A model generated the notes under the pieces. It ran no database searches. It saw only the letters and a list, made by a program, of their open reading frames with translations, and was not told the origin of the DNA. Shown here piece by piece: positions 25,190 through 61,287 of a DNA stretch of 64,000 bases. Every line of letters starts with the position of its first letter. Positions within the stretch are counted from its first letter, which is position 1. The DNA is from Escherichia phage vB_EcoM_11B_SA_NWU, in sequence record OR062527; one strand, written 5' to 3'. Position numbers and translations under genes: made by a program.

Positions 25190-27283
25190 TTATCCTTGAA
25201 CGAACTTGTAAGGCATGTTTGTAATATCTATGCAAGACGCAATAATTCCAAGAGATGATTCTACTTTCTGTTTAATATTTGATGAAACAAATGATGCAAA
25301 GTCAACTCTGTCTTCTATTTCAATATCACCTGTCATTGCAACCAATTCACCAGTTTCCATTAAATGGTCTCCGTCATAGATTACCGATTCGGTGAGCTCT
25401 TCTGTGGTCATAACTTCAGCTTGAATGAGTTTTGTATTATTAGATGTTGTTCCGTCATTATTAGAAGCATCAGTTATTTTATTAACCTTGACCATCAATC
25501 CGCGTGGTAGAATAACTTCAGCTTCTGTTGCTATTCCGAGACTTCCTGGATATACAACATTAACTTTATGAGCTCCATCAATTGCCCATCCTATTTGAAC
25601 TTTAACATATTCAGGATTTTCTTTATACGCTCTTATTTCGTTTGGATTAATAGTTATTCCTTCTTCATTTTTATCAACTGTTAATTCATTGCGAGCTTCT
25701 GGTTCTAAAAGACCAATACCAGCATGTGTGATTCCAAAACGTCCAAAAATGATAGGAGTTAAAGAAGTAGATACAAAATTTCTGAAGTAGAACACTTTAT
25801 TTTTAACTAACGCTTCATATATAGGAGCAGTCATACTTTGAGCACGATAAACTGTAATGCCTTCTGGTATACGGTCACCATTTTCAAAAGCTGAATCTAA
25901 GTTATTTATAGCAGATTCAATTTCTTTTTCACTCATTACATCGTATCGTTCTGGATTGTAACGACCTAAAAGAAGATTATTGATGTCAGTATATCCTGAA
26001 CCGCAATATTCTCTAATGCCACGCTTTTGTGATGGAGTATATTTAGAACCATCGCGTGCAATAGTAATATCAATCATTGGACCAGCACCAATTCCAGAAA
26101 AACTGTAAATCATTCGTTTGAGGAATTTAGTTTTTGTTGCGTTCCAGGAATTTTTAGTTATTTCTTCCCAGACTTCATCTGATTGTCCTTTACGATTTTT
26201 ATTATGATTAGCAAGCCATTTATCTTTATAATCTTCAAAGAATTGATTTACAGCTGCTGCGTATTTCTCTAAACATTTTATTGAAGTAGTTGGTTCATTT
26301 TTAATTGCATTAAAAATTACTTCTTTAATTTTTTCTGAAACTTCACCGACTTGACTCATTGGAAAGAATTTATAATCATAGTGAAGTTCATCTGCCGTTC
26401 CTTCGGCAATAATTTTTGCTGCCTTTGTTTTAGAAGCTAATGAATTAATTCCAATTTTCATTTCTTCTGCTTCGGGAATTAAAGGTGCAGTAGCTGGTTT
26501 ATTAAAATTGGCTGCTGTAGATTCATACTTCTGGAATAATTCACTTTCAAATCTAGAAGATTCCAATGACTGACTTTGTGCAATTGCTCTACGGGAAATT
26601 TTAACTTTAACGATTACAGCTTGGTCAGAACGTTTATCATTTTCTTGTGCAATAGATGCTGCAATTGCCTCATTTTTAGTTACTTGAGCACCAGTATCTT
26701 TATTGATATAAACATCACCGACCTTCGATTCAACTTTAGTAAAGAGCTCTGTACTAATTTCCGGAACTCCTGGAATGTCTTCTAGTGATACATTTTTGCG
26801 ATGTATAAGAATATATGCATACTTTTTATCGTAATCCCAGAGTTCCTTAAGAAGGACGTATCTGCCACCTGAACGACTGCGGATGAGTCTATCAGCAATA
26901 AGTTGAATTTGTCGAGCTTGACCGGCGGTTTTAGACTTAAGAATACGAAGCATACAGGCATCAATTTTATATTGACGCATTGTTTGCATTGCAACAGTAA
27001 AAACAGAATTGATATAATTAATCGGGCTTGGACCAAGACCTTTTAATTTAGCAATTGAACCTTTAGCAGTTAATGTAAAAGGAACAATATGCATCATTTT
27101 GTCGCCCATCTTTAAATCACGATTAGTATCACCTCCAGATGTATAGGTACATAAACGAAAGCCTGGTTGTTCAATTGCATCATCAACATGAACTGAAAAA
27201 ATTTGTGGTATTTTCTTCTTTGGATTTAAGTTTGTAATCGGAAGAGTAGTATCTTCGTCAAATAATTCTGTAATAAGTTCCAT
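25190..27283 (-). CDS. alt: Alt, capsid-packaged ADP-ribosyltransferase (697 aa)
   Basis: Size close to T4 Alt (682 aa); R / STS / ExE-type motifs; late promoter upstream; adjacent to gene 30. Confidence 0.8.
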   Translation of the reverse strand: MELITELFDEDTTLPITNLNPKKKIPQIFSVHVDDAIEQPGFRLCTYTSGGDTNRDLKMGDKMMHIVPFTLTAKGSIAKLKGLGPSPINYINSVFTVAMQTMRQYKIDACMLRILKSKTAGQARQIQLIADRLIRSRSGGRYVLLKELWDYDKKYAYILIHRKNVSLEDIPGVPEISTELFTKVESKVGDVYINKDTGAQVTKNEAIAASIAQENDKRSDQAVIVKVKISRRAIAQSQSLESSRFESELFQKYESTAANFNKPATAPLIPEAEEMKIGINSLASKTKAAKIIAEGTADELHYDYKFFPMSQVGEVSEKIKEVIFNAIKNEPTTSIKCLEKYAAAVNQFFEDYKDKWLANHNKNRKGQSDEVWEEITKNSWNATKTKFLKRMIYSFSGIGAGPMIDITIARDGSKYTPSQKRGIREYCGSGYTDINNLLLGRYNPERYDVMSEKEIESAINNLDSAFENGDRIPEGITVYRAQSMTAPIYEALVKNKVFYFRNFVSTSLTPIIFGRFGITHAGIGLLEPEARNELTVDKNEEGITINPNEIRAYKENPEYVKVQIGWAIDGAHKVNVVYPGSLGIATEAEVILPRGLMVKVNKITDASNNDGTTSNNTKLIQAEVMTTEELTESVIYDGDHLMETGELVAMTGDIEIEDRVDFASFVSSNIKQKVESSLGIIASCIDITNMPYKFVQG

Positions 27284-27306
27284 GTTATCCTCTCTAGTGT
27301 TTATTC

Positions 27307-27314
27307 TATTTATA
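27307..27314 (-). promoter_or_regulatory. Late promoter core TATAAATA (minus strand) for alt
   Basis: Plus tatttata, 23 nt upstream of alt ATG. Confidence 0.55.
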
Positions 27315-27319
27315 AAATT

Positions 27320-27337
27320 AAAGGCCCGAAGGCCTTT
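27320..27337. other. Hairpin aaaggcc-CGAA-ggccttt between the 61-aa ORF and the alt late promoter
   Basis: 7-bp stem read directly; may terminate or attenuate upstream early transcripts. Confidence 0.4.
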
Positions 27338-27339
27338 AA

Positions 27340-27525
27340 TTAATAGAGAGCTAAAAGAGTACGATATACTTCAAACTTTGGACCTTTTTCATATGGATCA
27401 AATCTTTCCGTGAATTCATCATATGCTAGTTTATCTGGGAATTCAAGAATAACCTGCGATACCGCAGTGGAAACATCTCCACCTTCTTTTTGAGCCACGA
27501 CAATTGTTTCTAAGTAAGCTTTCAT
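27340..27525 (-). CDS. Hypothetical small protein (61 aa)
   Basis: ORF overlapping gene 30 stop by 4 nt. Confidence 0.5.
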   Translation of the reverse strand: MKAYLETIVVAQKEGGDVSTAVSQVILEFPDKLAYDEFTERFDPYEKGPKFEVYRTLLALY

Positions 27526-28985
27526 AAACCAGTTACCTCATGAAAATCGCCAAATACATCTTCGAACGTATTAGCTTTAGTTTTATCTTCACGTAAACGA
27601 ATTGCAATTGGAAGAAATAGCTTAACGTAATCAGTACGTCCATCTAATTTTACCCAGCCGTTGCATTCGCACTCTAGAATTTTTCCAATATAATAATTTT
27701 GGTTTTCCATAATGCGAGTACGGTCAAGTTCATGCGATTTTACGCCGGCTTTATCTTTTAAGCCTGAACCAGCATTTACTTTAATTTTTCCACACTCTGA
27801 TTCAAGAATGAAACCACCTGCTTTAGTAGGGTCTTTACGGTGAGGATAAATTCCTACAATTTTTAAATCAACATCAATTACTTCTTTAAATTTATAAAGA
27901 TTTTTTGAACGAGCATTTTCCCATAATCCATCGATATTTTTGAGAATAATACCTTCAAGACCTTGGTCAATATACTTTTTGTAAATTACCTTAGCTTCAT
28001 CTAGGTTATTTACTACTTGGTTTTCAATTAAAATTACTTTATCATAGCCTGATGTCATTTGTTCTAGTTTAGAAAAACGTACATCATATTTTAAACGAAA
28101 CGCCGGAAGACCGTATATTTCTACCAACGGAACATAATCCCAGACCTGAAACTTCATGCATTGAGCTTCTTTTTCTGAAATAGTTCCCTTTAAAGATTTA
28201 TTAGCGATTCCATTAGAAGTAGTACGTGATTCAGCTACTTCGGCGAATTCTTTAGCTTTACTAATTTCAGGATAAGCATCAAAAAGAAAATCTAGGCCTT
28301 CTGGCTCCTTTTCAACTTGCTCATGGTATACCAATTCGCCATCAATTAACACACCTTCTGGATGAATCTGGCGAGCTTCTGCAGTCATTTTGATTAACTC
28401 TTCTTTGAGAAGATCTAATCCTAGATATTCATTACCAGCTCGTGATAAAAGACGAACATCATCTAATTCATCACCTCTGACTTCAGCAAAGCACCGAGCT
28501 CCATCAGCTTTTAATTGGGCAAAGGCTGGAAATTTGATATTCTTATTAATGCCTTTTTCATCATAAGAACTTGCCAGCATTTGAGGTTGTTCAGGAATTA
28601 AACCTGGCCAAACTTTATTTGCAATAGATACAGAAGCACCACATTCAAGGTCTCGCATCATTACTCGACGTAATACTTCAACATCATCTTTTTTACCATC
28701 GGTGATATATCCGATTAATTCCTCAATTGCCGCATTTCCAGTCAATTTCCGAGTAGCTAACGTGAATTCAATGAAGTCAAGCATATCGGTAAGAGTCAAC
28801 ATTCCAAAACTCTGGGTAGTAATACCCGGTTTAGGCCATTTCTTGATATAATACTGTAACCCACGAGAATAAGTCAGACGATATACTCGTTTAAGCAATT
28901 CATTATCTTTATTCTTTTCAAGAATTGCTTGCTTCTGCTTAGTTGAACCAATAGATGCTATTTCGTTCAGAATTTTAAGAATCAT
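27522..28985 (-). CDS. 30: ATP-dependent DNA ligase gp30
   Basis: 487 aa; N-terminus MILKILNEIASIGSTKQKQ...; KADGARC motif I. Confidence 0.95.
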   Translation of the reverse strand: MILKILNEIASIGSTKQKQAILEKNKDNELLKRVYRLTYSRGLQYYIKKWPKPGITTQSFGMLTLTDMLDFIEFTLATRKLTGNAAIEELIGYITDGKKDDVEVLRRVMMRDLECGASVSIANKVWPGLIPEQPQMLASSYDEKGINKNIKFPAFAQLKADGARCFAEVRGDELDDVRLLSRAGNEYLGLDLLKEELIKMTAEARQIHPEGVLIDGELVYHEQVEKEPEGLDFLFDAYPEISKAKEFAEVAESRTTSNGIANKSLKGTISEKEAQCMKFQVWDYVPLVEIYGLPAFRLKYDVRFSKLEQMTSGYDKVILIENQVVNNLDEAKVIYKKYIDQGLEGIILKNIDGLWENARSKNLYKFKEVIDVDLKIVGIYPHRKDPTKAGGFILESECGKIKVNAGSGLKDKAGVKSHELDRTRIMENQNYYIGKILECECNGWVKLDGRTDYVKLFLPIAIRLREDKTKANTFEDVFGDFHEVTGL

Positions 28986-29251
28986 TGTTCATCCTTTAGA
29001 GTTTGGTTTACAGCTCTATTATAAATCAATTCATCATTAAGCTCAGTCAAAGACCTGTGGTACGTGGTTCTAACTTTATTTCCTTGCATCCAGTGCTTGA
29101 CGTAAATGAAACCTTGCTCTACACATTTTTTAAAAATTCGTTCGTCTTTTTGAGCTCGGAATTCTGGATTGCATCTAAAAAATTGATTTACGTGACCGTA
29201 ATCACGTGTAGTATTACCTTCATTTTCATAAATAGTGTGAACAACAAACAT
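28982..29251 (-). CDS. Hypothetical protein (30.1 position)
   Basis: 89-aa ORF, ATGA overlap with gene 30. Confidence 0.55.
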   Translation of the reverse strand: MFVVHTIYENEGNTTRDYGHVNQFFRCNPEFRAQKDERIFKKCVEQGFIYVKHWMQGNKVRTTYHRSLTELNDELIYNRAVNQTLKDEQ

Positions 29252-30087
29252 CAGAATGCTCCTTGGAAAATATTATCACCACTAGTAGGTCTATTATACA
29301 AATACTCTATGCCACCGGGTTTAATATAGTTCCATGTCTGAAACGGATGCGTCTGATATGGATGATATAGATTATAAGGATTAAATCCAGGAGTTCTCCA
29401 GGTAGTGTTCCAAGGAAAAGAATCATTTTTAATCATCTTTTCAATTACATCTTTTATAGCTTTTTCACTATCAAAACTTTCTTTATTTTCATTCGATGGA
29501 AAAAGCTTATTCTCTACATCATTCCATGTATAAACTCGCTGTGCAGTTTTTGGAATACTGTCACGCTCCCCTCGAGCCATCCAATAAACAGGAACATTTA
29601 ATATTTCACTCGCATGATCGCAGTGGTGAGCGAGATCGTCAATATAACAAATTACGTTATATTTCTCTTTTGCCTTTTTGAACAACTCTTCTTTTGAAGA
29701 ATCATGACCACACATCAATACTTCTGAGAAGGCACCAGGAAAAAGAGCATTCAAATTAAATTGACGATTCAGCAGAGCGTCAATAGAATCACCCAGTGCT
29801 GTAACAGCTACAAAATTATAATCTTCTTTTAATTTGTTAATTACACACAGGGCATCTTTATATGGAGACAAGTAACGAATAAAATCTGAACGATTGTATT
29901 TTTCAATTAACTTGACACCAAGTTCTTCATCACAATTAAAAAGTTTACCAGGTGAAATAAATTTTTCGTCCTGAATCATTTTTAAAATATGTTCTAATGG
30001 AAGATTATATTTTTGGGCAAAATAAGGAAGGCCTGATTGCCAGCTTAAACATACTCCATCAATATCAGTTAAAATAGTAGGCTTCAT
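29251..30087 (-). CDS. HAD-superfamily-like hydrolase, putative nucleotidase/phosphatase
   Basis: 278 aa; N-terminal motif ILTDIDGV (DxDG HAD motif I) and YIDDL near motif IV position. Confidence 0.6.
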   Translation of the reverse strand: MKPTILTDIDGVCLSWQSGLPYFAQKYNLPLEHILKMIQDEKFISPGKLFNCDEELGVKLIEKYNRSDFIRYLSPYKDALCVINKLKEDYNFVAVTALGDSIDALLNRQFNLNALFPGAFSEVLMCGHDSSKEELFKKAKEKYNVICYIDDLAHHCDHASEILNVPVYWMARGERDSIPKTAQRVYTWNDVENKLFPSNENKESFDSEKAIKDVIEKMIKNDSFPWNTTWRTPGFNPYNLYHPYQTHPFQTWNYIKPGGIEYLYNRPTSGDNIFQGAF

Positions 30088-30548
30088 AGAGAGTCTCTTA
30101 ATAGGTTTAACACATCAATAAATTCAGCTTCGGTTAGTATTGTATCATCTTTTGTTAGACCACTAGCCATGCTGTGCTTCAAAACTTTTCCTTTCGAGGC
30201 TTGTAATGCATCACGAAACCCCTTGTTTTGAATCGCTGCTTCAAAATATGCATTTGTATACAATTCTTTCCACGCTGGGGAGTATCTTGAAAATGGAACT
30301 CCGAGCCAGAAGAGGGTCCCACGGTCCGCAGCTCTTGCATAAGACCTTCCAGCTTGTTGGGCGGCAAGCCCGGATAACCCAAATATACGTCTTTGCTGCT
30401 CAACATTTTTCACCTTGCATCCTTGGAGGAATCCTTCAAGACCTCCGAATTGAATACCATCCATGACGAAAGGCCATTGGGCGAAATTACTTAATGCGCA
30501 TGATGGCCATCTAAAATTGCTTCTAATCTCTAACTCAGACATTTTCAA
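30084..30548 (-). CDS. NADAR / YbiA-like (DUF1768) domain protein
   Basis: 154 aa; LSNFAQWPFVMDG...GLEGFLQGCK closely matches the YbiA/NADAR signature FSNFAxWP..DG...E.FQ..K. Confidence 0.7.
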   Translation of the reverse strand: MKMSELEIRSNFRWPSCALSNFAQWPFVMDGIQFGGLEGFLQGCKVKNVEQQRRIFGLSGLAAQQAGRSYARAADRGTLFWLGVPFSRYSPAWKELYTNAYFEAAIQNKGFRDALQASKGKVLKHSMASGLTKDDTILTEAEFIDVLNLLRDSL

Positions 30549-30741
30549 TACTTATAATTTCAACATCAGCCCAATGACCATAGCAAGGAAGACGAAATTC
30601 AACTGGCCAGTTAGGGTCCTTTTCTAATATAATAGACTTAACTTGTGGTTCTTCATGTTCATCAGTATATGGATTTTTATCTGTTACTTTATATGTGACC
30701 TTAATGTATTGAATTCCAAAAATCTTATTAATTATATTCAT
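30535..30741 (-). CDS. Hypothetical protein (30.x cluster)
   Basis: 68-aa ORF in overlapping operon arrangement. Confidence 0.5.
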   Translation of the reverse strand: MNIINKIFGIQYIKVTYKVTDKNPYTDEHEEPQVKSIILEKDPNWPVEFRLPCYGHWADVEIISIENV

Positions 30742-30935
30742 ACTAATTCCTTTAATCCGTAAATAGGAGACAATTCATCACCCATACGAAGGTCTTCATT
30801 TCCATCTACCCAGGAAACAATATAAGCCTCTTTTATTTGAACACCACTCCATTTAAATGGAGGTAGAACCTTAGAAATTAATCCAGGTATACCAACTCCC
30901 TTTAATTCAACAGTTTGACCTAAAAAGAATTTCAT
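30738..30935 (-). CDS. Hypothetical protein (30.x cluster)
   Basis: 65-aa ORF, ATGA-type overlaps on both sides. Confidence 0.5.
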   Translation of the reverse strand: MKFFLGQTVELKGVGIPGLISKVLPPFKWSGVQIKEAYIVSWVDGNEDLRMGDELSPIYGLKELV

Positions 30936-31222
30936 TAGAACCTCATCTGAAAACCATGCGATTTAACATTACCGCCGCCAATATCAGAAATATTAATTTC
31001 ACGCGCAATCGAAGGATCGATGTCAATTTCACGATTAAGTTTAGCGATAGCTAAAGTATCACGCCCATTTACAGTACGGAACTCTAAAGGACAAACCACA
31101 TCAACGTAATTTTTAATCGATTCACTAGTAGGCTGCAAATGAGCAGGAAGGTCTTTAGGCGCCTTTGAGAAAACCACTTCACAAAAATTTTTGCGGGTGT
31201 CAAAATAAGTAGTCATAAACAT
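30935..31222 (-). CDS. Hypothetical protein (30.x cluster)
   Basis: 95-aa ORF with SD gagg; 5' UTR hairpin at 31239-31254. Confidence 0.5.
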   Translation of the reverse strand: MFMTTYFDTRKNFCEVVFSKAPKDLPAHLQPTSESIKNYVDVVCPLEFRTVNGRDTLAIAKLNREIDIDPSIAREINISDIGGGNVKSHGFQMRF

Positions 31223-31263
31223 AATATTTTCCTCAGTAAGGGGCCAAAGCCCCTCATTTTATT

Positions 31264-31629
31264 TTAAATATCAAATTCATTAAGAACTACATCAAAGATT
31301 GCTTCAAGATGCTCAGGTTTAGCTCTGTTACTCAGAATATGACGAATCCAAGTTTTAACCAAAAGCTTGCGATTAGCACCATTCCAGCAAGGATGAGTCC
31401 CTAAATCGCGTTGACGAAAATCATCATCCAGAGCGATTTTAAAGTTGGAACCTTCCATTGTGATTGAAACCGTGATGCCATTTTCAAATCGCATATAAAC
31501 GTAGTTAGGAGTCATATACTGTTCAATTTCGCATACTGATCCATTTTGATGTTTCCAAAGGCAAATAGTATCAATAGAACCTGCAATACCATTAGAAACA
31601 TATTTACGTTCAAAGTTGATGTAGTTCAT
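31264..31629 (-). CDS. Hypothetical protein (30.x cluster)
   Basis: 121-aa ORF with SD ggaga and upstream promoter-like element. Confidence 0.5.
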   Translation of the reverse strand: MNYINFERKYVSNGIAGSIDTICLWKHQNGSVCEIEQYMTPNYVYMRFENGITVSITMEGSNFKIALDDDFRQRDLGTHPCWNGANRKLLVKTWIRHILSNRAKPEHLEAIFDVVLNEFDI

Positions 31630-31665
31630 TTTTATTCTCCGAGATGTTTAATTGCGGTACAGGTA

Positions 31666-31695
31666 TATAATATCATATCCTGTACCAAAGTAAAC
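31666..31695 (-). promoter_or_regulatory. Putative early promoter GTTTAC-N17-TATTAT embedded in an 8-bp inverted repeat
   Basis: Minus strand GTTTACtttggtacaggatatgaTATTAT; flanking inverted repeat ggtacagg / cctgtacc. Confidence 0.4.
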
Positions 31696-31697
31696 AA

Positions 31698-32030
31698 TTA
31701 TTTTACTACTTTCCAGTGTTGCATGTCAAGTTTACCGACTTTTTTCATCTTCTCAATTAAGCGTTCGGCACGTTGGCGAGCTGTAACATAATGCCATTCG
31801 CCTAATTCATTTTGTTCAATTTTTCCAACGATTACTGTATTCAATTCATAAATCCAACCAGTAAAGAAATTATGAACTTGAATTGTAAAGGTGAAATCTG
31901 TTCCCATACCTTCTGTTGTTTCTACTTCAATAATATCACCTTCAACTGCCATTAAGAACCACATAGTTTCGTTATATTCACCATTGAAGCATTTAGCTTT
32001 AACTGCAGCGTTCAGATTAATCGTTTTCAT
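31698..32030 (-). CDS. Hypothetical protein (30.x cluster)
   Basis: 110-aa ORF with SD aaggaga. Confidence 0.5.
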   Translation of the reverse strand: MKTINLNAAVKAKCFNGEYNETMWFLMAVEGDIIEVETTEGMGTDFTFTIQVHNFFTGWIYELNTVIVGKIEQNELGEWHYVTARQRAERLIEKMKKVGKLDMQHWKVVK

Positions 32031-32057
32031 TTTATTCTCCTTTGTTTGTGTAAAATA

Positions 32058-32086
32058 ATACTATCACAAAGGAACCATACTGTAAA
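32058..32086 (-). promoter_or_regulatory. Putative early promoter -35 TTTACA, 17-nt spacer, -10 TAGTAT
   Basis: Minus strand GTTTACAgtatggttcctttgtgaTAGTAT upstream of ORF 31698..32030. Confidence 0.45.
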
Positions 32087-32106
32087 CAACTTTGTGCAAT
32101 CTTTGG

Positions 32107-32136
32107 AAAATAAAAAAGGACTCCCGAAGGAGTCCT
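32107..32136 (-). terminator. Rho-independent terminator (aggactcc-CGAA-ggagtcct plus U-run on minus strand)
   Basis: 8-bp GC stem directly after ORF stop at 32141; minus strand continues ttttttatttt. Confidence 0.65.
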
Positions 32137-32140
32137 CAAC

Positions 32141-32317
32141 TTATGCTTTCTGCTTACCAAAACGAGAAGCATCATCTCGAAGAACCGCACGTGCTCGGCG
32201 CATGATCTTCTCAACAGTTTGATTGATACGAGAGTTCGACCCACGCTTGTAGCCAGCGCGTTTAGAATCACCAACTTTCTTTTCAACTGCTTTCTTTGCT
32301 TTAACTTGTTTTGCCAT
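32141..32317 (-). CDS. Small highly basic hypothetical protein (58 aa)
   Basis: MAKQVKAKKAVEKK... from ATG 32317; terminator immediately after stop; other-frame ORF 32032..32286 judged spurious. Confidence 0.45.
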   Translation of the reverse strand: MAKQVKAKKAVEKKVGDSKRAGYKRGSNSRINQTVEKIMRRARAVLRDDASRFGKQKA

Positions 32318-32562
32318 TATAAATTCTCTTTTAAATGAAAATGCAGGACTTATTGGCATTGCCTGCGCAAGCCCTCAAGGGGAACATAGGTTTTTGGGTA
32401 TTTAACGACCAGGATAACCATAAACCCGTCATCATTCACATTCAAGAGGTACACCATAAAACTGCCGGGGTCTTAAAACTATAATGATTCGCAAATCATT
32501 AATCAGACAGTTCGATGGCTCCTCGATTTTAGCTCACACTAAGGCAGTGAATCTCCAATAAA

Positions 32563-32811
32563 TTACTTCAATGTTACCACAAAGTGACGAACTGCTTTTC
32601 GCGCAGCAGAAGCCAGAGGCTTAGCATACTTAAGTTCATCTTTTTCCTGAAGCTCAGCAGCTAATGCAGTTTGAGCAGGATTCAAATGTTTGAAATAACG
32701 CAGGATTTCAAGAGCTTCGGCTTCAACATCAATAGATGCGCCATAGTTTTCGTGACCATTATTCCATGCGTTTCGTTGCAGTTCAAGAGCGTGTTGTAAT
32801 TGTTTAATCAT
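32563..32811 (-). CDS. rIII: RIII lysis-inhibition accessory protein
   Basis: 82 aa (T4 RIII length), located just before gene 31 in map order. Confidence 0.65.
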   Translation of the reverse strand: MIKQLQHALELQRNAWNNGHENYGASIDVEAEALEILRYFKHLNPAQTALAAELQEKDELKYAKPLASAARKAVRHFVVTLK

Positions 32812-32950
32812 TTAAAAATTCTCGTTAGAGATTAAAACTCGGTAGTCACGTTCTTCTGAATTTCATCTTCTTTCGACAGATCTCTCAGTTGTAGACTACC
32901 ACGTAGAATTGTTCGGTTAACTTATTATTCCGACACCCAATTCATATTAT

Positions 32951-32958
32951 TATTTATA
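32951..32958 (-). promoter_or_regulatory. Late promoter core TATAAATA (minus strand), candidate for rIII
   Basis: Plus tatttata abutting gene 31 stop; ~140-nt leader to rIII ATG. Confidence 0.45.
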
Positions 32959-33294
32959 TCACTTATAAAGACACGGAATAGCTTTATAGTGACAAGTAAC
33001 GAATTTTTGTTTAATTTCTTTTGGCTGCTTAAGACCCAGAGCTACAAAAGGATGCGGAACATTTCGAATTTGACCAACTGGAAGAGAAGTCAAATCACCG
33101 ACTTCGCAGAAACCTTCAGGAACATCAGGACCAACAGAGTGAACTACACACAGTTCAGGAACTTCACCTTGGACACGTTTACCAATAATAAGTCCTGATT
33201 CTGTAACTTCTTCATCACCGGCTTGCGCAGGTTCAGAAACTAAAATAACATATTCACCGACAGCACGAATTGGTAGCTGTTGTACTTCAGACAT
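32959..33294 (-). CDS. 31: Co-chaperonin gp31 (GroES analogue for gp23 folding)
   Basis: 111 aa; sequence [24 protein letters not shown]... recognised as T4 gp31. Confidence 0.9.
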
Positions 33295-33350
33295 CGTTTT
33301 TCCTTTTTGTTAACAGATGAATTAATAATAACAAATAATTCTTAAAGCAT

Positions 33351-33659
33351 TTATTTACCAATAAATTGAAGTAAATGCTCAACTTTCATACCATTAACAG
33401 AAATCAATTTGTCAATAGAAAAACCTCGCCATGCACCGAGTTCAACATCAAATATCGGAATCATATCAGTAGATTCTTTCCGAGTAGATTCAGTCAATTT
33501 ACCGGTTTGCATAGTTGGCATAAAGTCAGCATCACGAGTGCCTTTCATAGTACGAATAGTACCATCAGACTTTTCAAAAACCACGTTTGAAATACCCATG
33601 GACAATTTAGTTTTCAAAATTTCACGAATTGCTACTTTCTGTTCAGTTGTCAATTTCAT
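33351..33659 (-). CDS. Hypothetical protein (31.1 position)
   Basis: 102-aa ORF in T4-equivalent position. Confidence 0.6.
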   Translation of the reverse strand: MKLTTEQKVAIREILKTKLSMGISNVVFEKSDGTIRTMKGTRDADFMPTMQTGKLTESTRKESTDMIPIFDVELGAWRGFSIDKLISVNGMKVEHLLQFIGK

Positions 33660-40049: not shown

Positions 40050-41228
40050 TTAAAAATATTTTTTAAAACTCATCATAACTTTATCATCAACATCATTATC
40101 AATCTGTGCTACAAGGTAAGATGACAGTTCTACTTCTTGCGGCGCGGATTGAACATTATCAGAATTAAGGTATTCACGAATCCAAGGATATGGATGTTTA
40201 ACCGGAGCATCGGTAATTGGGCATGGAAGACCGCACTGTTTCATACGAGATACAGTTAAGTAATCAATAAAGCTCCACATGCTATTTGTATTTAATCCAG
40301 GAACATCGCCATCTTTAAATAAATGAACTGCCCAGTCTTTTTCTTGGCGGTTAACTTCCATGAAAATATCAACTGCTTCTTGTTCACACTCTTGAGCAAT
40401 TTTAACCCATTCATCGCCATCAGTACCGGATTGAAGCTGACGAATAATATATTGGGTGCCTTTAAGGTGAAGCTGCTCATCACGTGCAATGAACTTCATA
40501 ATCTTGGCATTACCTTCCATGATTTCCATGTTCTTATGGAAGTTAAAGGTACATGCGAAAGATACATAAAAACGAATAGCTTCCAGGGCATTGATAACAT
40601 GAAGGCAGAGATAAAGCGACTTCATCAATGCATATTTACATTCTTCCACATGCATAAGACTATTTGAATATGCATCTAAATCATATTCATTTTCGGAAAA
40701 ACATTTAAAAATTTCTTTTGCATTTTCCCATTCGCGCGTCTTAACCAGAACATCATCATAATAACGACCAATAGATTCAGCACGTTTCATGATAGCTTTA
40801 TCTAATACAATCTCATCAAATACCTTTGACGGATCAGTATAAAGATTTCGCATAATATGAGTGTATGAACGACTGTGAATAGTTTCACTAAAAGTCCATG
40901 TAGCAACCCATGTATCAAGACTTGGGTCTGAAATTAACGACATAAGTACAGCAGACGGTGCACGACCCTGAATGCTATCTAGAAGTGATTGATACTTCAG
41001 GTTATTAGTAAAAATATCTTGCTGATATTGAGGAAGCTTGTTAAATTGCGCAGCATCCATCATTAAGTTTACTTCTTCAGGACGCCAGAAAAATGACAAC
41101 TGCTTTTCGGTTAAATCTTCAAAAACTTTATGGCGTTGAATATCATAACGCGCAATACCAAGACCTGAACCGAAGAACATAGGTTCTTTTAAAACATCAA
41201 CTGGATTTGTATTAAAAACTGTGCTCAT
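40050..41228 (-). CDS. nrdB: Ribonucleotide reductase small subunit, uninterrupted
   Basis: 392 aa continuous ORF with R2 ferritin-like E/H ligand pattern; no intron. Confidence 0.9.
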   Translation of the reverse strand: MSTVFNTNPVDVLKEPMFFGSGLGIARYDIQRHKVFEDLTEKQLSFFWRPEEVNLMMDAAQFNKLPQYQQDIFTNNLKYQSLLDSIQGRAPSAVLMSLISDPSLDTWVATWTFSETIHSRSYTHIMRNLYTDPSKVFDEIVLDKAIMKRAESIGRYYDDVLVKTREWENAKEIFKCFSENEYDLDAYSNSLMHVEECKYALMKSLYLCLHVINALEAIRFYVSFACTFNFHKNMEIMEGNAKIMKFIARDEQLHLKGTQYIIRQLQSGTDGDEWVKIAQECEQEAVDIFMEVNRQEKDWAVHLFKDGDVPGLNTNSMWSFIDYLTVSRMKQCGLPCPITDAPVKHPYPWIREYLNSDNVQSAPQEVELSSYLVAQIDNDVDDKVMMSFKKYF

Positions 41229-41279
41229 AAATTTTCCACTTAGTTAATAGATAGTGACTCGTCCGTGAGTCAAATTATA

Positions 41280-43544
41280 TCATAATTTACAGGATGAACA
41301 ATCTTCAGCTTTTGGAGTTTCTATTTCATAATCATCAGTACCAGAACCATCACGGGTATTATGATAATAGAAATTTTTTCCGCCAAAATACCAAAAATAC
41401 AAAAGGTCATCAATCATTATTGACATTGGAACCTTTCCTTTTGGAAAAATCTGCGGGTCATAATATGTATTCGCTGAAGCTGATTGACATACCCATTTCA
41501 GCATAATAGCTACCTGCGTAAGATAAGGTTTATTACCTTTCTTAGCTAATTTCCATGTATAATCATAGAGGTCTATGTTATGCTCAATATTGGGCACGAC
41601 TTGATTAAAGGAACCCTCTTTTGATTCTTTAACAGAGACTGGTCCACGTGGAGGCTCGATGCCGTTTGTACTGTTAGAAACTTGGGAAGATGACTCACAT
41701 GGCATAAGTGCTGATAATGTGCTATTACGGATGCCAAAGAGCTTAAGGTCTTCCCGCAGCGCCGACCAGTCACAAACGTATTTTGGAGCTGCGATTTGGT
41801 CAATCTTTTTATTGTACCAGTCGATAGGTAATTCGCCTCGAGACCAACGAGTGTCTGAATAATATTCGCAAGGTCCTTTTTCTTTGGCGAGCTTAATGGA
41901 TGCTTTAATGAGTCCATACTGTAATCTCTCAAATAGTTCATGTGTTAAATCGTTAGCATCTTCATAAGAAGCAAAGTTACTTGCCAGCCAAGCTGCATAG
42001 TTAGTAACACCTACACCAAGGTTTCGACGCTTTTTAGCTTTTTCTGCTTCAGGAACTGGATATCCTTGGTAATCCAAAAGATTATCAAGAGCACGAACTT
42101 GAACTTCTGCTAATTCATTAATTTTATCTTGGTCTTGCCAATCGAAGTTATCCAGCACAAATGCAGATAACGTGCACAATCCAATTTCAGCATCAGGGCT
42201 ATTCACATCATTTGTTGGAATAGCAATTTCACAGCACAAGTTACTCTGACGAATAGGTGCCTTTTCACGAATAAACGGAGTATAGTTATTCGTATTATCA
42301 ATGAACTGTACATAAATCCTTGCTGTTCCTGAGCGTTCAGTCATGAGCAATTCAAATAGTTCACGAGCTTTAATACGTTTTTTACGAATATTAGGGTCTT
42401 TTTCTGCGGCTTCATACAATTCACGGAAACGGTCTTGGTCTTTAAAATAAGAATAATAAAGCTCGCCACCCATTTCATGCGGACTGAACAAAGTAATGTA
42501 GTCGTTCTTTCCAAAACGTTCCATCATTAGGTCATTCAGCTGGACGCCATAATCCATATGACGGATACGGTTTTCTTCTACGCCTTTGTTATTTTTCAAA
42601 ACGAGAAGATTTTCAACTTCCAAATGCCAAATAGGATAATAAGCAGTAGCAGCGCCGCCACGAATTCCACCCTGTGAACATGATTTAACTGCAGTCTGAA
42701 AATGTTTCCAAAAAGGAATAACACCGGTATGGCGTACTTCACCCATGCCAATCTTAGAACCTTCGGCACGAATCATACCAACGTTAATACCAATTCCAGC
42801 ACGTTTAGAGATATATTCAACAATTGAAGCGGAAGCCTTATTGATAGACTTCAGCGAATCACCTGCCTCAATAACAACACATGAACTAAACTGTCGAGTC
42901 GGAGTACGACAACCAGCCATAATAGGAGTTGGCAGTGAAATCTGTCGAGTAGATACTGCTTCATAAAAACGGATAACGTGTTTTAGTCTATCAACAGGTT
43001 CATCTTGATGCAATGCCATTCCAATAGTCATAAATGCAAACTGAGGAGTTTCATAAATTTGACCAGTGGTTTTATCTTTAACTAGATATTTTTCTTTTAA
43101 TTGCATCGCCCCGGAATAAGTAAATTCCATATCCCGCTCGTGCTTAATTTTTGATTCTAAAAATGTAATTTCTTCTGCTGAATATTTTGACAATAATTCA
43201 GGGTCATATTTACCTGCATTTACACAATAAGAAATATGGTCAATAAATGAACGCGGTTCATATTGTCCGTAAACATGCTTACGAAGAGCAAACATTAAAC
43301 AACGTGCAGCTACATATTGGTAATCAGGCTCTTCAACCGAAATAGAATTCGCAGCGGCCTTAATGACAATAGTCTGAATATCATCAGTTGTCATTCCATC
43401 ACGGAGATAAGATTTAATATTTTCATATAATTCATAAGGATCTACTGATGTTCCCTCAGCTGCCCAAGATAAAACTTTAATAATTTTTTGTGGGTCAAAG
43501 CTCTGAGAAACACCACTACTTTTGATAACATTAATTAATTGCAT
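41280..43544 (-). CDS. nrdA: Ribonucleotide reductase large subunit (class Ia)
   Basis: 754 aa as T4 NrdA; N-terminal ATP-cone; catalytic region with NLCCEI motif. Confidence 0.95.
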   Translation of the reverse strand: MQLINVIKSSGVSQSFDPQKIIKVLSWAAEGTSVDPYELYENIKSYLRDGMTTDDIQTIVIKAAANSISVEEPDYQYVAARCLMFALRKHVYGQYEPRSFIDHISYCVNAGKYDPELLSKYSAEEITFLESKIKHERDMEFTYSGAMQLKEKYLVKDKTTGQIYETPQFAFMTIGMALHQDEPVDRLKHVIRFYEAVSTRQISLPTPIMAGCRTPTRQFSSCVVIEAGDSLKSINKASASIVEYISKRAGIGINVGMIRAEGSKIGMGEVRHTGVIPFWKHFQTAVKSCSQGGIRGGAATAYYPIWHLEVENLLVLKNNKGVEENRIRHMDYGVQLNDLMMERFGKNDYITLFSPHEMGGELYYSYFKDQDRFRELYEAAEKDPNIRKKRIKARELFELLMTERSGTARIYVQFIDNTNNYTPFIREKAPIRQSNLCCEIAIPTNDVNSPDAEIGLCTLSAFVLDNFDWQDQDKINELAEVQVRALDNLLDYQGYPVPEAEKAKKRRNLGVGVTNYAAWLASNFASYEDANDLTHELFERLQYGLIKASIKLAKEKGPCEYYSDTRWSRGELPIDWYNKKIDQIAAPKYVCDWSALREDLKLFGIRNSTLSALMPCESSSQVSNSTNGIEPPRGPVSVKESKEGSFNQVVPNIEHNIDLYDYTWKLAKKGNKPYLTQVAIMLKWVCQSASANTYYDPQIFPKGKVPMSIMIDDLLYFWYFGGKNFYYHNTRDGSGTDDYEIETPKAEDCSSCKL

Positions 43545-44098: not shown

Positions 44099-44959
44099 TT
44101 ACACCGCCATCTTTCCTTTAATAGGAGGATGTGATTCATAGTTGTTAAGAACAAAATTATGAGGCTTTGCAAATTGACTCAACCAAAATACCTGCGATTC
44201 TGTGTCCCATTCATCAAATTCATCTGGAAATTTTAATTGTAATTCGCATAAATCCATAGGTTCACGACATAAAATTTCTTTACATTGTTCTACGTGATTC
44301 ATATAGATATGAGTATTACCACCAGAAAATATCAAATCTCCCGGAATAAGATTACACATCTTAGCTACAATATGAACTAACGTAGCATATGATGCAATAT
44401 TAAATGGAAGACCGAGGAAAACATCTACCGAACGTTGATACCACTGCAAATCCAAATAGCCATTACGCACATTAAACTGATAGAACATATGACAAGGCGG
44501 TAATGCCATATATTTAAGTTCAGCTGGATTCCATGCAGAAACAATTTGACGCCTATCATTTGGCAGTTTTTTAATACGATCAATAACTTCTATAATTTGA
44601 TCTACACCGCCAAAATCACGCCACTGTTTTCCATAAATTGGACCAAGTTCACCGCTATGGTATCCTAAATCTTTTGCTTGATTTTCGTAATTTTCATCCC
44701 AGACGGTTTTGCCTTGAATTAATGAATCATGTTGAATTAATCGCAAATCATTGACATTTGTGCTTCCTGATAAAAACCATATCAGCTCAGCAATGCATGC
44801 ATTCCAGGCGAGCTTTTTAGTTGTTACTGCAGGAAAGCCTTTAGTTAAATCCCAACGCAATTTAGTACCGAACAGAGCAATTGTTCCTGTGCCCGTTCGG
44901 TCATCGGTTTCATAGCCATTTTCAAAAATGTCTTTAATTAAATCTTGGTATTGTTTCAT
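44099..44959 (-). CDS. td: Thymidylate synthase, uninterrupted (no group I intron)
   Basis: 286 aa continuous; active-site PCH motif (ALPPCHMFYQF). Confidence 0.95.
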   Translation of the reverse strand: MKQYQDLIKDIFENGYETDDRTGTGTIALFGTKLRWDLTKGFPAVTTKKLAWNACIAELIWFLSGSTNVNDLRLIQHDSLIQGKTVWDENYENQAKDLGYHSGELGPIYGKQWRDFGGVDQIIEVIDRIKKLPNDRRQIVSAWNPAELKYMALPPCHMFYQFNVRNGYLDLQWYQRSVDVFLGLPFNIASYATLVHIVAKMCNLIPGDLIFSGGNTHIYMNHVEQCKEILCREPMDLCELQLKFPDEFDEWDTESQVFWLSQFAKPHNFVLNNYESHPPIKGKMAV

Positions 44960-57132: not shown

Positions 57133-61255
<4,123 letters not shown>

Positions 61256-61287
61256 TTTTTGAATAAATATCCTTAAAAGGAGGGTCT

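Follow-up and report, generated by a model that had tools for sequence, protein, structure and literature searches.

A T4-type gene 30.3 (adfN) in Escherichia phage vB_EcoM_11B_SA_NWU very probably encodes a stand-alone NADAR enzyme countering DarTG1

NADAR enzymes and T4 gene 30.3

NADARs reverse the guanine ADP-ribosylation carried out by DarT1 (Schuller et al. 2023, PMC11543638). The residue in the last strand of the fold is His in phage NADARs, Glu in YbiA, and Asp in the NADARs linked to DarT (PMC11543638), and the His has been described as a hallmark of the phage proteins (PMC11125620, PMC11543638). Purified gp30.3 of phage T4 hydrolyses guanine-linked, not thymidine-linked, ADP-ribose on DNA and gave E. 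coli no protection against DarT1 in vivo (Cihlova et al., Toxins 2024, PMC11125620). The DarTG1 resistance of T-even phages was mapped to gene 30.3, which was renamed adfN, for anti-DarT factor NADAR, and was both necessary and sufficient for resistance (Johannesman et al., Nat Commun 2025, PMC11825919). In the same work phage T2 was fully DarTG1-resistant, E36A and K43A impaired T4 AdfN while retaining partial rescue when over-expressed, and the sensitivity of RB69 was explained by a frameshift that removes the last 15 residues, a truncation that lowers activity (PMC11825919). Full AdfN activity seems to require a further T-even factor, and T4 AdfN gave only partial rescue of non-T-even phages (PMC11825919) and no rescue of uninfected E. 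coli from DarT1 (PMC11125620, PMC11825919). A T-even helper or a determinant of specificity may thus form part of the mechanism. In a 2025 Tn-seq preprint, 30.3 was non-essential on K-12 and completely depleted on DarTG1 (log2FC -7.25, padj 0, Data S6), and 30.3 and 30.4 were the only two significant T4 genes on DarTG1 (10.1101/2025.11.20.689424).

Four groups of proteins bear comparison with AdfN. T4 AdfN itself (gp30.3) has the same position as the gene described here, the same E36, K43 and H123, and the same neighbours, 30.4 and 30.2, and differs by Q72A and I125M. DarG1 (BC4488 subfamily; G. lovleyi 8bat and E. coli C7) shares the fold of AdfN and the guanine-ADP-ribose reaction of T4 AdfN, and is its closest bacterial relative in published trees, where the gp30.3 clade lies nearest the DarG1-type NADARs (PMC11825919). 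AdfN differs from DarG1 in having no DarT1 partner gene, no N-terminal extension (152 vs 219 aa in 8bat), and His rather than Asp in the last strand, and in giving no rescue of uninfected cells from DarT1 (PMC11125620, PMC11825919). YbiA (2b3w) has the SNF...DG...E..FQ..K motif in common with AdfN and is its best structural match (E 7.3e-5, TM 0.68, 18% identity), but it carries Glu where AdfN has His123 and, unlike AdfN, is a housekeeping N-glycosidase of the riboflavin pathway. The AdfN proteins of Bas32 and Bas60 and the T4 protein AdfM (tk.4) are, like AdfN, phage-borne orphan antitoxin-like ADP-ribosylglycohydrolases directed against DarTG. Of these, the Bas32 and Bas60 proteins fall in other NADAR clades and, unlike T4 AdfN, are active without phage infection; AdfM is of the macrodomain fold and is directed against the thymidine-modifying DarTG2.

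Here we describe a gene in a 64-kb stretch of Escherichia phage vB_EcoM_11B_SA_NWU (OR062527; hereafter the window) that is very likely adfN (T4 gene 30.3) of a T4-like Tequatrovirus, encoding a stand-alone NADAR enzyme that counters DarTG1. Direct experiments on its T4 orthologue have already established the function of adfN, and the finding is already published. The principle, that a lytic phage carrying a stolen antitoxin-type enzyme erases a DNA-modifying defence, was established for T4 30.3 in 2023–2025, and the window adds one more near-identical allele.

Gene map, reading frame and allele

The window contains a T4-type early gene cluster on its minus strand (Table 1). Several Tequatrovirus genomes matched the 2.4 kb surrounding 30.3 at 98.5% identity, and at least 80% of this segment was covered in 490 phage records. 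The adfN gene is flanked by the T4 genes 30.4 and 30.2, with no DarT1 partner gene adjoining. The 30.3 stop and 30.2 start overlap (CTATGAAG, ATGA type), as does the 30.4 stop with the adfN ATG (...GAAAATGTCTGAG), and ATGA-type overlaps are the rule across the whole cluster. The original prediction had placed the NADAR gene and its HAD-like neighbour downstream of DNA ligase; on the transcribed minus strand both lie upstream of it. An Rfam scan of the whole window returned no matches. A scan of 27000–33500 for sigma-70 promoters and terminators found 26 promoter-like sites vs 23.1 +/- 4.9 expected, which is not above chance, and was uninformative on "early" expression. Searches with 30.3 and 30.2 gave no match in PADLOC and nothing useful in NCBIfam.

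Table 1. Positions of genes and features of the 30.3 region in the window
Feature	Position	Strand	Remark
alt, ADP-ribosyltransferase gene	25190-27283	-	~3 kb from 30.3
gene 30, DNA ligase	27522-28985	-	
30.1	28982-29251	-	
30.2, predicted HAD-superfamily phosphatase, 278 aa	29251-30087	-	NT5C-like core, residues 1-200; disordered C-terminal tail
30.3 = adfN, predicted 152-aa NADAR-fold DNA ADP-ribosylglycohydrolase (T4 orthologue assayed)	30084-30542	-	ATG 30542-30540, TGA 30086-30084
Two codons, TTG AAA, before the adfN ATG	30543-30548	-	probably outside translated 30.3
30.4, 68 aa	30535-30741	-	stop overlaps adfN start
30.5 to 30.7	beyond 30.4 in the cluster	-	
30.3', 75-codon ORF, +1 frame within 30.3	30179-30406	-	annotated in T4
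Glu36 codon GAA, catalytic	30435-30437	-	pairs with Glu of the YbiA EHYFQAQK motif
Lys43 codon AAG, catalytic	30414-30416	-	conserved in at least 90%
His123 codon CAC, last beta-strand	30174-30176	-	invariant, 64 homologues
C-terminal helix, residues 138-152	30087-30131	-	absent from inactive RB69 allele

An uninterrupted ORF spans 30084–30548 on the minus strand and encodes 154 aa if counted from TTG, the length originally predicted. The open frame is real, but the start lies two codons inside it. The T4 annotation of 30.3 is a 459-nt CDS from ATG; the corresponding ATG in the window lies at 30542, two codons after the TTG at 30548, and gives a product of 152 aa. We took this ATG as the start because the T4 CDS length and the published E36/K43 numbering fit only the ATG.

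The protein and T4 gp30.3 are of equal length and identical at 150/152 residues (98.7%), and the window allele keeps the last 15 residues, which RB69 lacks, its allele ending at residue 137. The two substitutions relative to T4 are Q72A and I125M; Met125 is the family consensus and is present in RB69 too. Neither of them alters a catalytic residue. The nucleotide differences from T4 fall at third codon positions in 18 of 21 cases, and the 30.3 frame is therefore under purifying selection. Homologues of 30.3 were found in 1510 phage records. The overlapping ORF 30.3' differs from T4 at 11/75 residues, vs only 2/152 for gp30.3, and is broken in RB69; its sequence thus carries no sign of protein-level constraint.

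Family, fold and catalytic residues

The window protein matched the Pfam family PF08010 (Phage_30_3) over the full profile (positions 1-138/138, E 3.6e-69, 231 bits vs a cutoff of 36), and gave no match to Pfam NADAR (PF08719) at E<=0.1. All 64 homologues of gp30.3 matched PF08010, and 8/64 also matched PF08719 (best E 1.5e-7). Single-sequence phmmer of gp30.3 against the PDB returned only noise (E > 1). A profile built from the 64 homologues had YbiA (2b3w) as its sole credible PDB match (E 0.0085), aligning LSNFA..F..DG....EGFLQ..K to FSNFAAWPIKVDGKTWPTSEHYFQAQK of YbiA across the catalytic motif. Since there was no direct PF08719 or phmmer match, placement in the NADAR superfamily rests on profile, fold and transitive matches.

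The AlphaFold2 model of gp30.3 (pLDDT 93.9, pTM 0.89) includes a C-terminal helix at residues 138-151. Foldseek against the PDB returned only three matches at a probability of at least 0.99, namely YbiA 2b3w (E 7.3e-5), the Phytophthora NADAR 8bau, and the Geobacter lovleyi NADAR 8bat; all matches ranked below these three were noise, the first of them at E 3.4. The predicted fold is that of NADAR/YbiA. The NADAR/DUF1768 signature noted in the original prediction is thus borne out by the profile alignment to YbiA and by Foldseek matches to NADARs only.

Every sequence in the alignment of the 64 homologues has E36 and H123, K43 is kept in at least 90%, and E36 and K43 align to the E-x(6)-K motif of YbiA. 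The profile search and the alignment proposed as checks at the outset therefore both came out in favour of the assignment: PF08010 was matched, the family profile found YbiA, and the acidic and Lys catalytic residues are kept. The description as YbiA-like holds for fold and motif and needs changing at the level of subfamily. The Glu of the last strand in the YbiA subfamily is replaced by His123 in the window protein, which belongs to the phage gp30.3 clade and is not YbiA-like in the subfamily sense.

The enzyme activity and counter-defence role are those of the T4 protein, from published experiments, and at 98.7% identity the window allele would be expected to behave like T4 AdfN. In the proposed mechanism the DarT1 toxin of a DarTG1 host attaches ADP-ribose to guanines of the phage DNA, which blocks phage replication. 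AdfN would then cut the guanine-ADP-ribose bond using Glu36, Lys43 and His123, leaving clean DNA on which replication could proceed, and would in effect be a phage-carried orphan antitoxin. The adjacent 30.2 would encode a separate HAD-type phosphatase, dispensable for the AdfN reaction. Reversal of DarT1 guanine ADP-ribosylation, which the original prediction had named for NADAR domains, has been demonstrated for the T4 protein in vitro and in vivo (PMC11125620, PMC11825919), and both of its suggested experiments, rescue of plaquing on DarT1 hosts and an ADP-ribosyl-DNA hydrolase assay, are already published for T4 30.3 (PMC11825919, PMC11125620). Overall its observation was confirmed and its interpretation is supported with minor corrections.

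Flanking genes and alternative roles

Gene 30.4. A T-even factor for AdfN might be sought in the flanking genes, and gp30.4 (68 aa) could be a T-even-specific potentiator of AdfN. Apart from 30.3, its gene is the only one in T4 significantly depleted on DarTG1 (log2FC -1.79, padj 0.014; 10.1101/2025.11.20.689424). The protein is confined to enterobacterial T-even phages, with 720 records vs 1510 for 30.3, a distribution that superficially fits the T-even-restricted full activity of AdfN. However, the overlap of the 30.4 stop with the adfN ATG means that insertions in 30.4 should depress adfN expression, whether by polarity or by loss of translational coupling, and polarity is the better explanation of the Tn-seq signal than a helper role. 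In two genome records of DarTG1-resistant T2, whose sequences agree, a frameshift breaks 30.4 in two, and in distant phages the small ORFs that precede 30.3 bear no relation to gp30.4. We rejected a conserved 30.4-30.3 module on the same comparison, as the upstream ORFs in Konradin, Aeh1, ECD7, KVP40 and RSP15 had no similarity to gp30.4. A potentiator role for gp30.4 is thus quite unlikely, and because its stop overlaps the adfN start, 30.4 probably matters through the expression of adfN rather than its activity.

Gene 30.2. The product of 30.2 begins MKPTILTDIDGV, and its motif I is D8-I-D10-G-V. Across 54 homologues D8, D10 and G11 of motif I and K132 of motif III are invariant, and conservation is at least 90% for T96 of motif II and D150-D151 of motif IV. 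The window protein had no match to Pfam HAD or NT5C models at E<=0.1, and 6/54 homologues matched PF00702 and 5/54 the NT5C model PF06941. The best PDB match of the family profile was mouse 5'(3')-deoxyribonucleotidase (2jao, E 0.016). The AlphaFold2 core (residues 1-190) has pLDDT above 90, and the C-terminal ~80 residues are variable, with disorder predicted. Foldseek returned 92 PDB matches at E<1e-3, of which the best 50 all had the HAD fold, with cdN 2jao at the top (E 3.6e-8). Like cdN/mdN (NT5C, HAD), gp30.2 has a Rossmann-like HAD core, a helical cap, and the motifs DxDGV, T, K and DD; it differs in its sequence (~17% identity) and in the extra disordered tail of ~80 aa. The HAD motif I (DIDGV) reported originally in this neighbour is therefore well founded, with D8 and D10 invariant and the fold matches to HAD proteins. 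From its motifs and model, gp30.2 is predicted to be a HAD enzyme of the phosphatase type that depends on Mg and has an NT5C-like cap.

The original prediction also implied a functional link between the two neighbours. Such a link could be a two-enzyme pathway in which the HAD enzyme processes the ADP-ribose or phosphoribosyl product released by 30.3, or gp30.2 could be the T-even factor that AdfN seems to require for full activity (PMC11825919). Points in favour are the ATGA overlap, a position side by side or almost so in T4, RB69, Acinetobacter phage Konradin and Aeromonas phage Aeh1, and the intact catalytic motifs of the HAD phosphatase encoded by 30.2. Against this, 30.2 was neutral in the DarTG1 Tn-seq (71 TA sites, log2FC -0.12, p 0.61), where 30.3 was lost, and it is non-essential in T4, with insertions at 72/72 TA sites (10.1101/2025.11.20.689424). 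In vitro, the purified T4 NADAR needs no partner (PMC11125620). ECD7, KVP40, Ralstonia phage RSP15 and phage SRB7757 all lack a 30.2 gene at a distance of up to 5 kb from 30.3, which in ECD7 directly adjoins ligase. Nor are ATGA overlaps special to this pair, being common to the whole cluster. Tn-seq has already largely refuted the two-enzyme pathway, and we rejected 30.2 as a helper of AdfN on its Tn-seq neutrality and the broken synteny, so that we regard either form of pairing as very unlikely. Since 30.2 is neutral and its adjacency to 30.3 is lost in distant phages, the adjacency reflects cluster synteny and not a shared pathway.

The evidence speaks against both flanking genes, 30.2 and 30.4, as the source of the T-even factor missing for AdfN. 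The counter-defence or nucleotide-repair role first suggested for both members of the pair accordingly stands for 30.3, by way of its T4 orthologue and DarTG1, and falls away for 30.2 as far as DarTG1 is concerned, where it is not needed. A doubtful reading of gp30.2 is that of a conditional enzyme independent of AdfN, a second factor in counter-defence or the nucleotide pool that acts in unscreened hosts or conditions. Its substrates could then be of nucleotide type, for example a dNMP or a nucleotide-derived immune signal. Literature searches on "gp30.2" and "gene 30.2" returned nothing relevant.

Other functions of the NADAR fold. Fold and motif are common to gp30.3 and YbiA, so gp30.3 might instead be a YbiA-type housekeeping N-glycosidase that clears intermediates of the riboflavin pathway. 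The presence of alt in the 30.3 cluster, here as in Konradin and Aeh1, would also allow an enzyme that reverses ADP-ribosylation by the phage's own Alt, ModA or ModB. The Glu that defines YbiA is His123 in every member of the gp30.3 family, however, and the known targets of Alt, ModA and ModB are proteins or RNA, not guanine in DNA. In addition, 30.3 is dispensable on plain K-12 and essential only with DarTG1, and insertions in alt, as in nudE and adfA/61.2, were neutral on DarTG1 (Data S6, 10.1101/2025.11.20.689424). Both functions are highly improbable for gp30.3 beside that of a DarTG1-countering NADAR. That the window allele is an inactive remnant like that of RB69 is scarcely credible, as nothing beyond the two substitutions relative to T4 favours it, and the allele is full length, has its terminal helix and all catalytic residues intact, and differs from T4 by substitutions that are almost entirely synonymous.

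Genes flanking adfN

Published transposon sequencing (Tn-seq) of phage T4 on hosts with the DarTG1 toxin-antitoxin defence found two significantly depleted genes only, adfN (gene 30.3, encoding the NADAR-fold protein gp30.3) and its upstream neighbor 30.4 (log2FC -1.79, padj 0.014) (10.1101/2025.11.20.689424). For DarTG1, the main text of that paper named 30.3/adfN as the sole gene. Gene 30.4 was restricted to enterobacterial T-even phages and was frameshifted in T2, a DarTG1-resistant phage.

The Alt ORF of the window, longer than its T4 equivalent (682 aa), was ~3 kb from adfN within the same cluster, and Acinetobacter phage Konradin and Aeromonas phage Aeh1 likewise had an alt gene flanking their ligase/30.x cluster. 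In Konradin, a gene annotated as nudE shared its strand with the 30.3-30.2-ligase block and was located ~2.5 kb upstream of it. Insertions in alt and in nudE (log2FC 0.11) were both neutral for T4 on DarTG1 (10.1101/2025.11.20.689424).

Features in and around the 30.x cluster and sites of difference from T4 (window coordinates unless noted)
Feature	Coordinates	Strand	Description
alt	25190-27283	-	Alt ADP-ribosyltransferase ORF, 697 aa
gp30.2 C-terminal tail	29251-29500	-	residues ~200-278
ORF 30.3'	30179-30406	-	75 codons, alternative frame inside gene 30.3; T4 annotates 30.3'
Gene 30.4	30535-30741	-	stop codon overlaps adfN start
Non-aligning segment	36683-36998		~315 bp between pseT and pseT.1
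Intron/mobE difference sites, T4 vs window	40552-40711, 41228-41284, 44099-44959
Non-aligning segment	45005-45352	-	115-aa ORF, between td and frd
Non-aligning segment	45956-46545	-	ORFs of 81 aa and 110 aa, in the frd-frd.1 interval
Distal tail-fibre region	57299-61263		distal portion of gene 37, plus gene 38
nudE (Konradin)	L004:1903-2427		annotated putative ADP-ribose pyrophosphatase

ORF 30.3' and the gp30.2 tail

The reading frame of ORF 30.3' was unbroken in the window, with 11/75 residues changed relative to T4 versus 2/152 in gp30.3. It was broken in RB69, and no counterpart was found in ECD7, KVP40, or RSP15. ORF 30.3' evolves like non-coding sequence. The C-terminal tail of gp30.2, the HAD-type phosphatase encoded next to adfN, was predicted to be disordered and was very variable or missing among homologues. 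Several distant homologues shared a G-I-E-Y-L-x-x-x-P-T patch within it (GGIEYLYNRPT in the window) that looks like a candidate short linear binding motif.

Differences from T4

T4 carries group I introns in nrdB and td, whereas the window phage has neither, and its td was a single unbroken ORF of 286 aa. This agrees with the lack of any Rfam match across the 64-kb window. The mobE/nrdB.1 segment of T4 was also missing. In a megablast comparison of the window with the collinear T4 stretch (134-163 kb), the three non-aligning segments in the table had no alignment. The distal tail-fibre region also had no T4 alignment at megablast level. This last region is the usual variable cassette for host range, and its flanks shared ~94-95% identity with T4.
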